24,434 nucleotides of DNA from a phage, in assembly GCA_021031555.1 (NCBI GenBank), contig GCA_021031555.1_4954.1; one strand, given 5' to 3'. A model generated the notes under the pieces. It was not told the origin of the DNA, made no database searches, and was given only the letters and a program-made list of their open reading frames with translations. A program made the translations under genes and the position numbers. Positions 2,618-5,548 of this stretch are shown here, one piece after another (position 1 is the stretch's first letter; the number at the start of each line of letters is the position of its first letter).

Positions 2618-3637
2618 ATGAGTTACAAACAGAATTTTCGCGACGTTGGCGCACCAGATACATTCCTGTCTAACTTTTCTGTAAGTTACTGGCAGGATAC
2701 GTCACTGTTTGTCGGTACTCGTTATTTCCCGGTAGTTCCTGTTAACCAGGCTGCTGGTAAATTCCTGACTTACCCGAAAGGTTATTTCGGTCGTCCGGTT
2801 AACTCCAAACGTGCCGAAGATGGTGTTGCTAATACTATTGGTTACAAAACCAAAAACCAGGGTTACACCGTTGATGACGATGCGATCCGTATCTTTATTT
2901 CTGACAAAAAACGTGCAAACGTTCAGAACGGTCAGCAACTGGATATGGAAGCGTCAGCAGTAACCACAGATGCGTTGCTGATCAACAAAGAAGTGGATTT
3001 TGCTGAAAAATTCCTGACCGCTGGTAAATGGGGTCTTGATTTCCAGGGTAAAGATTCATCTCCGTCCACGGGCGAATTCCTGAAATGGTCTAATGCGAAT
3101 GCCGATCCGATTGGTGATATCCTGTCACGTCGTGTTGCGTTCTCTCTGGCATCCGGTGGTCGTCGCTGGAATAAAGCACTGATGACGCTGGACGTGTATG
3201 ACGCACTGACCCGTAACCCGGCTGTTATTGACCGCATTAACGGTGGTTCTACCACTCAGAATCCGGGGATCGTGACTAAACAGGCACTGGCTGCACTGCT
3301 GGAAGTTGACGAACTGGAAATCATGCAGTCTGTGGTCAACATGGCTGCTGATGGCGTTGAAGACAGTGACGGCAATCCGCTGTCAGACTTCCAGTTTGCT
3401 AAAACTGGTGTACTGATGCTCAACTATGTTGAACCGACTGTTGGTAACATGAAACCTGTTGCTGCTGCTGGCTTCGTGTGGAACGAATTCATCGGTCTGG
3501 GTGTTAACAACGGTCCGTCTATCCGCACCTATCCGGGTGTTGAAGGTCGCCGTGGTAATTTCGTTGAAGCGGAATTTGCCATTGATGTTCAGATGGTTGC
3601 ACCTGACCTGGGCGTTCTGTTCTACGACGCGGTTTAA
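2618..3637 (+). CDS. major capsid protein (HK97-fold type, no delta domain)
   Basis: 339-aa ORF of typical major capsid length with no N-terminal delta domain; follows scaffold and decoration-like genes; followed by a strong intrinsic terminator. Confidence 0.75.
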   Translation: MSYKQNFRDVGAPDTFLSNFSVSYWQDTSLFVGTRYFPVVPVNQAAGKFLTYPKGYFGRPVNSKRAEDGVANTIGYKTKNQGYTVDDDAIRIFISDKKRANVQNGQQLDMEASAVTTDALLINKEVDFAEKFLTAGKWGLDFQGKDSSPSTGEFLKWSNANADPIGDILSRRVAFSLASGGRRWNKALMTLDVYDALTRNPAVIDRINGGSTTQNPGIVTKQALAALLEVDELEIMQSVVNMAADGVEDSDGNPLSDFQFAKTGVLMLNYVEPTVGNMKPVAAAGFVWNEFIGLGVNNGPSIRTYPGVEGRRGNFVEAEFAIDVQMVAPDLGVLFYDAV

Positions 3638-3658
3638 TAACAACTGTGGTATCATTAA

Positions 3659-3684
3659 GGGGTGGCTTATGCTGCCCCTTTTTT
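3659..3684 (+). terminator. rho-independent terminator after the major capsid gene
   Basis: Stem GGGGTGGC / GCTGCCCC (8 bp, two G-U pairs), loop TTAT, followed by TTTTTT. Confidence 0.7.
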
Positions 3685-3699
3685 CATGAGGTTAAAATC

Positions 3700-4053
3700 A
3701 TGCGTAATTCATATGATCCGTCACTGAAATATGTTTTCACCCGTCCGATGCTGTGGAACGGTAAACAGATGTCCGCTGGCGATAAAGTATCAACATCAAA
3801 AGCTACCCCGGCTGTTTTAAATGCCCTTGTGCGTATGCGCCACATTGAACCAGCTACTGCGACCGTTGAAGAACCAGTGATTATAGCAAACGAAGAATCG
3901 GCATCAACCACTGCGGCTGAAATCCGACGTGACGCGCCAAAAACCTATAACGTTTATGTTATGGGTATGCCGATGAATTCAGAATCGTTTAGTAGTAAAA
4001 GTGCCGCTGCTGAATGGTGTGAATCTCAAGGCTTGACATATAACTATTCTTGA
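3700..4053 (+). CDS. hypothetical protein
   Basis: ATG 3700 with GAGG 9 nt upstream. The ORF-track start at 3646 would read through the terminator hairpin, so it is rejected. 117 aa. Confidence 0.6.
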   Translation: MRNSYDPSLKYVFTRPMLWNGKQMSAGDKVSTSKATPAVLNALVRMRHIEPATATVEEPVIIANEESASTTAAEIRRDAPKTYNVYVMGMPMNSESFSSKSAAAEWCESQGLTYNYS

Positions 4054-4061
4054 CCTATTGT
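4033..4061 (+). promoter_or_regulatory. candidate sigma70-type promoter
   Basis: -35 TTGACA (4033-4038), 17-bp spacer, -10 TATTGT (4056-4061). Lies at the 3' end of the preceding CDS and points into the non-coding region. Confidence 0.35.
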
Positions 4062-4256
4062 TAGTTGTAGATAGTTTTCGTGGCGACTTTGCGGACTTTT
4101 TAGAAACTGACCACAAAGATAAATGCAAACGAAGAACGTTTTCTGATGGCGGCGTAATAGCCTGTAAGTCAGCAAGGTCTTCCGATTCCTTGTAAATAAA
4201 TTCGGCGCACTGGCCCGGTGTGATTAATAATGGGCACACAACAGGTAAGAGCATTG

Positions 4257-4302
4257 CGCGCCTGACGAGTCCATGAGGGACGAAACGCATTAGCGTCGCG
4301 CG
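4257..4302 (+). ncRNA. type I hammerhead self-cleaving ribozyme motif
   Basis: Read directly from sequence. Stem I 4257-4261 (CGCGC) pairs with 4298-4302 (GCGCG). Core CUGACGA at 4262-4268. Stem II GUCC/GGAC (4269-4272 / 4278-4281), loop AUGAG. GAA at 4282-4284. Stem III ACGC/GCGU (4285-4288 / 4293-4296), loop AUUA. C17 at 4297, giving a GUC cleavage triplet with the predicted cut between 4297 and 4298. Confidence 0.7.
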
Positions 4303-4509
4303 GAGTATCCCCAGCCGGGGAATAACTGGATACCAGGGGAGTCAACCCTAAGCGCATTTACGAGTGTGTTTAGGGCGTGGGTCGGCAATGACTCCCTGTG
4401 CAGCCGACATCTGGCCCGGCAACATACAGTGCTCTTATCGTTGTGGTGAATTGCAGTTCTCAGAAACAACCAGAAGATAAGCGCCTGGCACTGCAACCAA
4501 ACACTCGCT

Positions 4510-4530
4510 GATAAGGAGGTGATCCTTATC
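4510..4530 (+). promoter_or_regulatory. hairpin carrying a 13-nt perfect anti-16S (extended Shine-Dalgarno) sequence
   Basis: TAAGGAGGTGATC (4512-4524) is the exact reverse complement of the 16S rRNA 3' end. It sits in an 8-bp inverted repeat GATAAGGA / TCCTTATC with loop GGTGA. A TTG at 4531 opens a 17-codon ORF. Confidence 0.4.
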
Positions 4531-4698
4531 TTGCTGGCGGGAAAGCCGCAAATCGTGGGTAAAGCATGTTGTGAAACATCCTGAACTGCGTGTCGTTTTA
4601 CATAACTGGTTATTCACGTGTCACGCATAGGGGTATGTTGGGACGTCAGGTGTGGATGACCAGTTATGTAAAACCCTCATTATCACCCAGAGCCATTT

Positions 4699-4724
4699 GC
4701 CGTCTGTTTAAGACGGCTTTTTTT
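4699..4724 (+). terminator. rho-independent terminator
   Basis: Stem GCCGTCT / AGACGGC (7 bp), loop GTTTA, followed by TTTTTTT. Confidence 0.75.
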
Positions 4725-4763
4725 CGTGCTAATATAACGAAAACATTTCTCACAGGTGATCAC

Positions 4764-5174
4764 ATGGCTATTACAGTTGAAGGTATTCGTTATTTGATCA
4801 GTGTCCCTGATGTTACTGATGAACAAATTCAGTGGTACATTGACAACGGTTATACAAATCCTCTCAGTATTTGCGTCGCTCTCTGTGATTATATGGCGTC
4901 TATTGCCAGCAACGATACTGATATTAAAGTAGGTCCGATCTCACTCAGTAGTAGTCAGTCAGCAGACGCCTGGAATAAACTTAAAAAAGATTTTATTTTA
5001 CGTATTAATACTGGCGCTGATTCAGGTGGCGGTTTGTTAGGTAGTTTTATGGGTGTTGGTGGAGCTACTTTAACTGGCGCTGGTATGCAACCTGCTATTC
5101 AACGTGGTCAGTTCGACAACCCACCTGTAACACTTGAAAGCGGTAGTCATGCACTTAATGAGGGTGAACGGTAA
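4764..5174 (+). CDS. putative head-tail joining / head completion protein
   Basis: ATG 4764 with AGGTGA upstream. The ORF-track start at 4590 would read through the terminator, so it is rejected. 136 aa. Function by position only. Confidence 0.6.
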   Translation: MAITVEGIRYLISVPDVTDEQIQWYIDNGYTNPLSICVALCDYMASIASNDTDIKVGPISLSSSQSADAWNKLKKDFILRINTGADSGGGLLGSFMGVGGATLTGAGMQPAIQRGQFDNPPVTLESGSHALNEGER

Positions 5175-5548
5175 TGGCAGACAAACGTCAAAGCGTCCTG
5201 AACGGTGTTACTCGTGCACTTGCTGAAGTAGGTGAGGATTTGACGGTAAAACGTGTGACAACAGTTCCCAACCCTTCTAATCCTACATTACCGGGTACAA
5301 CCGTTACTGAATCACACACCTGTCGTGGTTATATTTACCCATTAGAAAAGTGGGATCCGACTACTATGACCAGAATAACCACAACGATGGTAATTATGGA
5401 TAGTCAGAGTTTTGAACCACGATTCGTTCCCGATCGGGGGGATGTTGTGGTTGATGAACGTGGTAAAGAATATCGCCTTCTTGATTGTCAAAACCCACGA
5501 TTGTTAGGGGATGATATGGCATTTATTCACCCTGTTGGAGCGGCCTGA
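5174..5548 (+). CDS. putative head-tail joining protein
   Basis: 124-aa ORF; TAATG overlap with the upstream gene; position between capsid and tail genes. Confidence 0.6.
   Translation: MADKRQSVLNGVTRALAEVGEDLTVKRVTTVPNPSNPTLPGTTVTESHTCRGYIYPLEKWDPTTMTRITTTMVIMDSQSFEPRFVPDRGDVVVDERGKEYRLLDCQNPRLLGDDMAFIHPVGAA

Follow-up and report, generated by a model that had tools for sequence, protein, structure and literature searches.

The phage genome analysed here raises a question: What occupies the interval between positions 4054 and 4763, lying among the head genes, in which no credible protein gene can be found? The DNA under study is contig GCA_021031555.1_4954.1 of GenBank assembly GCA_021031555.1, a stretch of 24,434 nucleotides (hereafter the window) that belongs to a 9NA/Sasha-like siphophage (Sashavirus/Nonanavirus). 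We consider it very probable that the phage has here a gene for non-coding RNA, put together from RNA cassettes that can be exchanged, the first of which resembles the template part of transfer-messenger RNA (tmRNA), while those behind it comprise a hammerhead ribozyme fused to a structured RNA that we call X. The parts of the unit are the following:

4033-4061, plus strand: putative sigma-70-type promoter, with -35 TTGACA at 4033-4038, a 17-nt spacer and -10 TATTGT at 4056-4061
4070-4237, plus strand: tmRNA-derived mRNA-like-domain (MLD) module without tRNA-like domain, recognized by Rfam, alignment and covariation
4238-4256, plus strand: 5' arm of the frame hairpin, ACAACAGGTAAGAGCATTG, pairing with 4427-4446
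4257-4302, plus strand: type I hammerhead ribozyme, predicted to cut after C4297
4298-4423, plus strand: X RNA, a 126-nt double pseudoknot delineated by covariation, its 5' end set by the hammerhead
4427-4446, plus strand: 3' arm of the frame hairpin, CAGTGCTCTTATCGTTGTGG, common to Sasha, PJ16, EhYP and P1
4447-4698, plus strand: structured 3' domain of three sub-modules, defined by folding and sharing
4699-4724, plus strand: intrinsic terminator, GCCGTCT-GTTTA-AGACGGC (4699-4717), with a 7-bp GC-rich stem, a 5-nt loop and seven T

This architecture emerges from Blast comparisons with Sasha, PJ16, 9NA, C1, EhYP, Pappous and EC1-UPM, in which the breakpoints coincide with the borders of the modules. 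From the 3' domain, 9NA shares only 4500-4591, together with the terminator region; the other phages compare with the window as follows:

Sasha: common from the promoter up to 4063, in the frame arms and from 4427 onward; first module and cargo differ
PJ16: everything common up to 4240; an extra 160-nt module and other cargo
C1 and EC1-UPM: only 4069/4070-4256 common
EhYP: only 4238-4444 common
Pappous: only 4257-4424 common

Since the breakpoints fall at module borders, the locus is a slot for RNA cassettes that are shuffled among unrelated phages. The modules are found in Autographiviridae, Schitoviridae, Ackermannviridae, Felixounavirus, P1 and siphophages and, judging from their sequences, they are conserved, structured and horizontally exchanged.

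The sequence-only reading of this DNA had proposed a dedicated structured non-coding RNA element, with its own promoter and terminator, in a gap between genes devoid of usable reading frames. The gap is genuine, for the ends of the flanking coding sequences (CDSs) are confirmed and none of the eight open reading frames (ORFs) of 37-103 aa on both strands of 4054-4763 has a PHROG match. Nor do the relatives encode a protein across the interval; in them the same slot holds alternative RNA modules, and compensatory changes support the helices. What stands of the proposal is hence a structured non-coding unit between head genes, bounded by a putative promoter and a terminator; what does not is its unity, as it is a mosaic of independently mobile modules. 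The reading also noted an enrichment in GC, which reaches 0.52-0.54 over 4150-4600 versus 0.39-0.46 in the flanks, even if the capsid gene also attains 0.54; the rise is limited to the central cargo in the middle of the unit. Outside the interval 4054-4763, the region 3600-5200 has 98% identity with Sashavirus BDX09P1, E. coli phage PJ16 and Salmonella phage Sasha. The upstream CDS, 3697-4053, is a conserved hypothetical gene matching phrog_19242 (E = 1e-67), and the downstream one, 4764-5174, is the first head-tail gene, matching phrog_21889 (E = 4e-85).

The tmRNA-like tag module

The first 170 nt of the unit, which the sequence-only reading had not recognized as a tmRNA-like tag template, contain the following elements:

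4072-4081, plus strand: 5' motif UAGUUUUCGU, the most conserved part of the module
4087-4091 (CUUUG) with 4114-4118 (CAAAG), plus strand: region like pseudoknot PK1 of tmRNA
4125-4160, plus strand: tag frame GCA AAC GAA GAA CGU UUU CUG AUG GCG GCG, then UAA UAG
4143-4146 with 4169-4172, plus strand: helix 5
4173-4177 with 4188-4192 and 4182-4185 with 4202-4205, plus strand: PK2
4208-4210 with 4218-4220 and 4213-4216 with 4232-4235, plus strand: PK3

The tag frame encodes ANEERFLMAA in 10 codons, from an alanine resume codon, GCA, to a double stop. The nucleotides AUA at -6 to -4 before the resume codon are invariant; we take these positions to be the frame-setting ones of E. coli tmRNA (U85, A86), following the mutagenesis literature. 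Upstream, an in-frame UAG lies at 4101-4103, with no AUG, GUG or UUG in between. The 124 IMG/VR and GenBank copies, plus those of Cba120 and FO1a, amount to 29 distinct nucleotide versions of the frame. In every version a stop comes after precisely 10 sense codons, and together they encode 18 peptides of pattern A-N-[DE]-[DEN]-x-x-[LM]-x-[AV]-A. Variation is highest at third positions (GCA/GCU, AAC/AAU, GAU/GAC, CUG/UUG/CUU, GCG/GCC/GCU/GCA), Ackermannviridae and Felixounavirus copies having the synonyms GCU AAU and GAC. Internal stops interrupt the two other frames, one in 28 and the other in 23 of the versions, and synonymous changes make up 25% of codon differences in the tag frame versus 4% and 12% in the others. 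By this pattern of substitutions, the tag frame is under selection at the peptide level.

The fold is supported by covariation: 95.3% of the alignment cells are paired and 12 of the 21 pairs show double changes, a result equalled by none of 500 shuffles and set against 38-55% in slid controls. Compensatory changes are seen in helix 5, in PK2 (both stems) and in PK3 (stem 1). In a permissive Rfam scan, the matches over 4063-4206 are centred on the tag (beta_tmRNA, 23.5 bits, E = 3e-5; tmRNA_permuted, 27.8 bits, E = 0.0014). Local alignment support covers bona fide tmRNAs of Legionella and of gammaproteobacteria; against Legionella tmRNA, 4069-4260 scores 44 versus 21.8 +/- 3.3 for shuffles (z ~6.7), with the alignment spanning PK1 through the tag. 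The segment UAAAUGCAAACGA at the resume codon is common to bona fide tmRNAs of Legionella and Herbaspirillum. Thus the module resembles tmRNA (SsrA, in one-piece or permuted form) in resume codon, AUA, a 10-codon tag that starts with AN[DE] and ends with A-A or V-A, double stops within a helix-5-like hairpin, H-type pseudoknots behind it, and sequence similarity to Legionella and betaproteobacterial tmRNAs over PK1 and tag.

The module differs from tmRNA in being only ~170 nt long inside a longer multi-module transcript, in having tags that deviate systematically from the host type ending in YALAA and, above all, in the absence of acceptor stem, T-arm, CCA and helix 2, both in cis and elsewhere in the searched genome of the sister phage PJ16. 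With ARAGORN, neither a tRNA nor a tmRNA is detected in the window or in the complete 57.8-kb genome of PJ16, which has the same tag module, and 42 related loci likewise yield no tmRNA; Rfam returns for PJ16 the MLD match only, and in the window too the tmRNA models align just over the MLD. Moreover, the predicted transcript starts at the first conserved nucleotide of the module, leaving no room for a 5' acceptor strand. Lacking a tRNA-like domain, the module is therefore a fragment of tmRNA extending from PK1 to PK3, not a tmRNA. As half a tmRNA on a mobile or organellar genome it is comparable to the CDS-less tmRNAs of mitochondria, plastids and mycobacteriophage DS6A, but as their mirror image: those keep the tRNA-like domain, whereas the tag module keeps the template. 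The tRNA-like-domain-only tmRNA of DS6A interferes with host tmRNA, and it is among such forms reported in published tmRNA censuses, which depend on ARAGORN or Rfind hits (PMC11915505). Gene finders and databases for tmRNA key on the tRNA-like domain, so that a template without one is invisible to them.

Several candidates for the missing domain were considered. X RNA starts with GCGCGG, which can pair with CUGUGC-A so as to give G1-C, C2-G, G3-U70 and A73; it was rejected, for this acceptor-like pairing shows no covariation, 5 of the 12 sequences cannot form its fourth pair, and a free CCA end is lacking. Another candidate was a tmRNA of permuted or two-piece form, its acceptor lying upstream, as suggested by some loci (L118 and L011) in which a hairpin is followed by AACUAUC that can pair with GAUAGUU at the 5' end of the module; this piece has no T-loop, CCA or alanine identity, and in the window the promoter occupies its position. 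A scan near tag modules for an acceptor combined with T-arm, NCCA and G3-U70 gave a plausible match only in Felix O1-like phages (L283 1694-1772), the others being chance pairings with ordinary tRNAs.

Separate mention is due to tRNA-like genes seen near tag modules elsewhere. In Salmonella phage FO1a (L283, 1694-1775), the tag module and a single frame hairpin are immediately followed by one that ARAGORN misses; it scores 31.7 bits with the Rfam tRNA model and combines the alanine identity set (C1-G72, G2-C71, G3-U70, A73) and an encoded CCA with an odd body, in which a loop resembles a UCU anticodon. CBA120 (L282, 825-2996) and EC1-UPM (L284, 862-2825) have unannotated islands of ~2 kb, in which the tag module is accompanied by several long RNAs resembling tRNA. 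These have an acceptor stem of 7 bp, a T-arm and an encoded CCA, yet ARAGORN calls none of them.

The distribution of the tag module is wide. It is present in at least 705 phage records, encompassing Ackermannviridae, among them Vi1-like phages (CBA120), Felixounavirus, N4-like Gamaleyavirus, P1 and many siphophages of Klebsiella, Salmonella and E. coli, as well as in prophages of 146 out of 5426 complete E. coli genomes. It is unannotated in all of these prophages and in every phage record inspected, and our literature searches on phage tmRNA-like RNAs found no publication describing this module or a template-only form of tmRNA. The heptamer ACGAAAC is complementary, with one bulge, to GUUUUCGU in the 5' motif of the module, and the two may form a long-range closing helix. 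In 33 of 123 tag loci a hairpin with a 5-bp stem, GCUCC-ACGAAAC-GGAGC, presents it as the loop behind the module; the only copy in the window, at 4280-4286, lies in the hammerhead core.

Hammerhead ribozyme, X RNA and the other modules

The cargo of the frame hairpin in the window consists of a hammerhead ribozyme and X, with these elements:

4257-4261 with 4298-4302, plus strand: hammerhead stem I, open
4262-4268 (CUGACGA), 4282-4285 (GAAA) and 4296-4297 (UH), plus strand: hammerhead core
4269-4272 with 4278-4281, plus strand: hammerhead stem II
4286-4288 with 4293-4295, plus strand: hammerhead stem III
4305-4310 with 4328-4333, plus strand: X helix H1
4336-4343 with 4390-4397, plus strand: X helix H2
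4346-4356 with 4365-4375, plus strand: X helix H3
4381-4386 with 4403-4408, plus strand: X pseudoknot PKa
4314-4319 with 4415-4420, plus strand: X pseudoknot PKb

A ribozyme in the interval had been part of the earlier proposal, and a Hammerhead_1 match at 4257-4303 with a complete core bears it out, albeit at a sub-gathering score (24.7 bits, E = 0.002 in a 1-kb search; 28.7 bits for the EhYP copy). We aligned 12 hammerhead-X sequences of 5 lineages: the window type, L241, L263, Pectobacterium phage Pappous and L254/L268, the last from large phages. In this alignment the core is invariant and stems II and III show compensatory changes. The complete fold, comprising the hammerhead stems and the five X helices, two of which are pseudoknots, has 98.3% of cells paired and double changes in 19 of 49 pairs; none of 500 shuffles does equally well, and the values for slid controls are 34-46%. 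The junction GUC|GCGCGGAGUAUCC, in which the bar marks the cut, is invariant wherever the GUC site is kept; two copies of the L254/L268 type have GUA| there. Hammerhead and X travel together in diverse settings: within a frame hairpin behind the tag module, by themselves behind a terminator, where capsid and tail genes meet in an Autographiviridae phage, and between tRNA genes with spacers of 3-11 nt. Rfam 15 has no family matching X at E <= 10, and in the window the Rfam search gave no ribozyme family other than the hammerhead and no GOLLD or ROOL match. Hammerhead-linked X is a well-supported new structured RNA class, and as a fused partner of the hammerhead it appears to be previously undescribed. 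The 'drum' motif proved not to be hammerhead-associated.

With the type I hammerheads of prophages and phages (RF00163; Perreault et al. 2011), the ribozyme shares the full core, three stems with stem I open, the GUC site and an intergenic position, such intergenic hammerheads being known in phages (PMC3088659). It departs from them in its constant fusion to the conserved 126-nt X RNA, in its frequent location inside a frame hairpin or between tRNA genes, and in its score below Rfam gathering.

Two repeats noted from the sequence alone find different explanations in this fold. The nested inverted repeats GGGAGTC/GACTCCC and CCCTAA/TTAGGG are present where they had been placed and correspond to helices H2 and H3, supported by covariation. 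The 9-bp direct repeat CTGGCCCGG does occur at 4210-4218 and 4411-4419, but it brackets nothing, contrary to what had been thought: its first copy sits in PK3 of the tag module and its second is the 3' strand of an X pseudoknot. X keeps its own copy in L004, L196 and L241, which lack the first one, and the helix covaries to CCCGCC and CCCTTC. The two copies belong to unrelated pseudoknot strands and agree by coincidence; an interpretation as target-site duplication was considered and rejected.

The frame hairpin enclosing this cargo is itself a recurrent module, for the arms ACAACAGGUAAGAGCAUUG and CAGUGCUCUUAUCGUUGUGG return in many phages around unrelated loops. The same arms surround unrelated cargo in Sasha, PJ16, C1, P1, EC1-UPM and EhYP, the loop measuring ~40 nt in Sasha, 46 nt in PJ16 and 37 nt in C1. 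Within the ban-operon leader of P1, elements like a T-arm are present in some of the loops, and one frame is separated from the next by tRNA genes. Tag loci have 1-6 frames each, by counts made with loose criteria, with a median cargo of 53 nt. Felix O1-like phages have changed the sequence of the arms and kept their pairing, and no known family of Rfam 15 is matched by frames. At the RNA level the hairpin may act in folding insulation or as an RNase III processing site; its conserved arms also provide homology for the exchange of cassettes.

The locus of P1 (L006 1380-2700; NC_005856 ~68.9-70.2 kb) is an array of this kind. Downstream of the 'dicF-like region', a tag module encoding ANDDLMMVAA is followed by at least three frame hairpins, some with the T-arm-like loops GGGTTCGAATCCC and GGGTTCATATCCC. 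The tRNA genes between frames are tRNA-Asn and tRNA-Thr, and the annotated CDSs plp and upl lie on the opposite strand of the RNA array. A second type of long framing hairpin, CCCACGAAUGAGAG...CUCUCAUUCGUGGGUAACAACGGGC, with its own variable cargo, is found in PJ16 (L001 3640-3800), L010, L012 and L039; in L010 the cargo contains a T-arm, CAGGTTCGATTCCTG.

Behind the frame hairpin, the 3' domain is composed of three parts:

4447-4499, plus strand: sub-module 1, GGUGAAU...CACUGCAAC stem, of an architecture like that of the STnc100/PasD prophage small RNAs (sRNAs)
4500-4591, plus strand: sub-module 2, hairpins including GNRA loops, common to 9NA
4592-4684, plus strand: sub-module 3, long stem of ~24 bp with the conserved GGGGUAUG motif, absent from 9NA

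The domain folds with a minimum free energy of -104 kcal/mol (z = -4.76 versus shuffles), and 47 phage records share parts of it. The P1 counterpart of its first stem has a partial match to STnc100 (33.4 bits, gathering 47). Non-coding RNA genes in late structural regions of enterobacterial phages and prophages have known parallels in STnc100 and PasD, and also in AgvB and AsxR; the STnc100 family and PasD have been noted as typically adjoining phage structural genes (bioRxiv 10.64898/2026.05.13.724894). The 3' domain of the window differs from these in that STnc100 (RF02076) has no match at E <= 10 in 4420-4740. The interleaving of modules with tRNA genes, as seen in P1, Felix O1-like, C1-like and large IMG/VR phages, recalls phage tRNA arrays with accessory RNAs such as GOLLD, ROOL, HDV-like theta ribozymes and the stable RNAs of T4, with the difference that the window has no tRNA whatsoever.

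Two short elements of the 3' domain may be recorded here. The sequence GCUGGCGGGA (window 4533-4542) can pair without mismatch over 10 nt with nt 347-356 of E. coli tmRNA, which span the 3' strands of T-arm and acceptor; 8 of 100 shuffles attain this length. The motif UAGGGGUAUGnnGGGA recurs in a hairpin (window 4615-4650, L003 2870-2900, L284 2440-2470) whose closing stem covaries (CCGUAAU:AUUACGG, CGCAAU:AUUGCG) and which often precedes a tRNA-Met(CAU) gene; it may constitute a further small RNA module.

The predicted promoter of the unit matches the consensus hexamers at 10 of 12 positions and overlaps the stop codon of the upstream CDS (4051-4053), with transcription predicted to start at ~4068-4069. 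Its hexamers lie where the sequence-only reading had placed them, and the sequence is identical in Sasha and PJ16. In unrelated phages of the C1 and L030 types, a TTGACA-17-TAGATT promoter has its +1 falling 1-3 nt before the motif AUAGUUUUCG, the same that lies directly behind the promoter of the window; this position, conserved in at least two unrelated phage backgrounds, lends the promoter independent support, even if the match by itself is within chance. The strong intrinsic terminator at 4699-4724 is likewise confirmed as a GC-rich hairpin with T7, and carries a terminator annotation in Sasha.

Proposed function and rival explanations

What might such a unit do during infection? The sigma-70 promoter would produce a transcript of ~655 nt, from ~4068 to the terminator, which the hammerhead in the loop of the 19-bp frame hairpin would then cut in two after C4297. 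The 5' RNA would contain the tag module and end with a 2',3'-cyclic phosphate; the 3' RNA would start with a 5'-OH and comprise X and the 3' domain. In E. coli RNA decay, 2',3'-cyclic phosphate and 5'-OH ends are expected to slow degradation. The two halves may stay paired via the frame stem, or be separated by RNase III acting on it, with X and the 3' domain predicted to be separate stable RNAs.

Because the module keeps what a template needs (AUA at -6 to -4, GCA, 10 codons and a double stop), it most likely supplies a phage tag. Our best guess is that the tag RNA would serve as template in SmpB-dependent ribosome rescue, with the alanyl-tRNA-like function provided by the host in trans. The tag ANEERFLMAA would thereby replace ANDENYALAA of the host, with ends of FLMAA- instead of NYALAA-type, and alter the fate of the proteins tagged during infection. 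Taken as one statement, this combination of RNA gene, processing and tag function in trans is the best explanation of the whole, and we regard it as moderately probable. Its parts differ in strength. From its sequence, the tag has about an even chance of being actually translated, whereas the specific mechanism of trans-translation in trans is advanced as tentative; the fuller formulation, in which a template-only tmRNA of enterobacterial phages and prophages, freed in the window by a hammerhead that also releases X, is used with host SmpB and either the host tRNA-like domain or an unrecognised partner RNA so that proteins from rescued ribosomes receive a C-terminal tag of the phage's choice, we consider somewhat doubtful.

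Various points weigh against these ideas. A scan gives 3 promoter sites of such quality in 3 kb versus 5.4 expected, so that the promoter match alone is non-significant; the tmRNA scores are below Rfam gathering (23.5 vs 84 bits for beta_tmRNA, 27.8 vs 47 for tmRNA_permuted), and so is the hammerhead score (24.7 vs 34). The covariation of PK1 is weak, with 1 compensatory pair and 90% of cells paired. We know of no precedent for trans-translation with mRNA-like and tRNA-like domains on separate molecules. Duplex prediction and k-mer complementarity reveal no convincing tether to host tmRNA. Global RNA-RNA duplex prediction against it was uninformative, since shuffles gave lower energies, and the sole complementarity is that of UAGUUUUCGU at 4072-4081, which fits nt 97-106 of E. 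coli tmRNA (tag codons 3-6) over 10 nt without mismatch; it is marginal, 5 of 100 shuffles reaching it. Moreover, the Salmonella tag sequence would put one mismatch in this pairing.

Four rival explanations have to be weighed, and each of them explains less of the evidence. The same complementarity could mean that host trans-translation is inhibited by the tag module, or lured away by it as a decoy, its 5' motif pairing with the tag codons of the host, or the module titrating proteins that bind MLD or pseudoknots. No other part of the module is as conserved as this motif, which is located at the predicted 5' end, like the seed of an sRNA; however, the match is barely above chance, and the motif is invariant also in phages whose hosts have different tag codons (in Salmonella the tag is ANDETYALAA). 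A decoy would leave unexplained why amino acids are conserved while nucleotides change synonymously. Hence we judge it improbable, despite the precedent for phage interference offered by DS6A, the tRNA-like-domain-only tmRNA of which inhibits host tmRNA (PMC11915505). The location just behind the capsid gene block suggests another possibility: cis-acting punctuation of the late operon, in which the balance between capsid mRNA and the mRNAs for neck and tail would be fixed by the terminator, by cleavage at the ribozyme and perhaps by an RNase III site, the RNAs themselves being functionless. A second terminator at 3657-3680 behind the capsid gene, the hammerhead-X cassette that Enterobacter phage EhYP has at a T7 T-phi-like position between capsid and tail tubular genes, and the proposal that gene-flanking prophage hammerheads process long transcripts (PMC3088659) would fit with this. 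Yet the same modules, which have their own promoters, occur in the P1 ban-operon leader, in tRNA arrays and in the 2-kb non-coding islands of Cba120 and EC1-UPM, and punctuation would not account for the selection on a 10-codon frame and a 5-helix pseudoknotted fold; it is therefore unlikely.

Could the unit instead be a DNA element? Its 20-bp inverted arms around variable cargo, the presence of 1-6 such hairpins per tag locus and a cassette 95% identical between a Sashavirus and an Autographiviridae phage might suggest the terminal inverted repeats of a transposable element like a MITE (miniature inverted-repeat transposable element), the RNA features being incidental. This is very unlikely: a target-site duplication is lacking, since the 9-bp repeat does not qualify, the arms have no associated transposase, constant arms with variable cargo are the reverse of a transposon, and the Felix O1-like arms that change sequence yet pair indicate selection on an RNA helix. 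Least credible of all, to the point of being almost negligible, is the notion of decayed remnant DNA or a hidden small protein gene. PJ16 annotates a minus-strand CDS for a 145-aa hypothetical protein opposite the tag module (PJ16_048, L001 3387-3824), which is probably spurious, and the window has a minus-strand ORF of 103 aa at 3979-4290; but the internal ORFs are without PHROG match, relatives have the minus-strand ORF interrupted where modules meet, and substitutions follow the RNA helices and the plus-strand tag frame.

Returning to the phage RNA gene with a tag template, its implications are manifold. Should the tag be in use, the degradation signal added by trans-translation is one that phages rewrite, which bears on the dependence of several phages on host ssrA, and proteins ending with ANEERFLMAA, ANDDLMMVAA and related tags are predicted. 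If trans-translation is truly split in trans, it would represent a new mode of hijacking ribosome rescue. The frame hairpins, in turn, reveal a cassette system exchanging RNA genes between unrelated phages.

Two observations concern the neighbouring genes. The product gp42 of 9NA has apparently been called from an upstream start equivalent to that of the window GTG ORF 4590-5174, which crosses the terminator. The hairpin at 3657-3680, with 10 bp followed by a T-rich stretch, is a second strong terminator-like structure directly after the major capsid gene; consequently, the gene at 3697-4053 may be transcribed at a reduced level.

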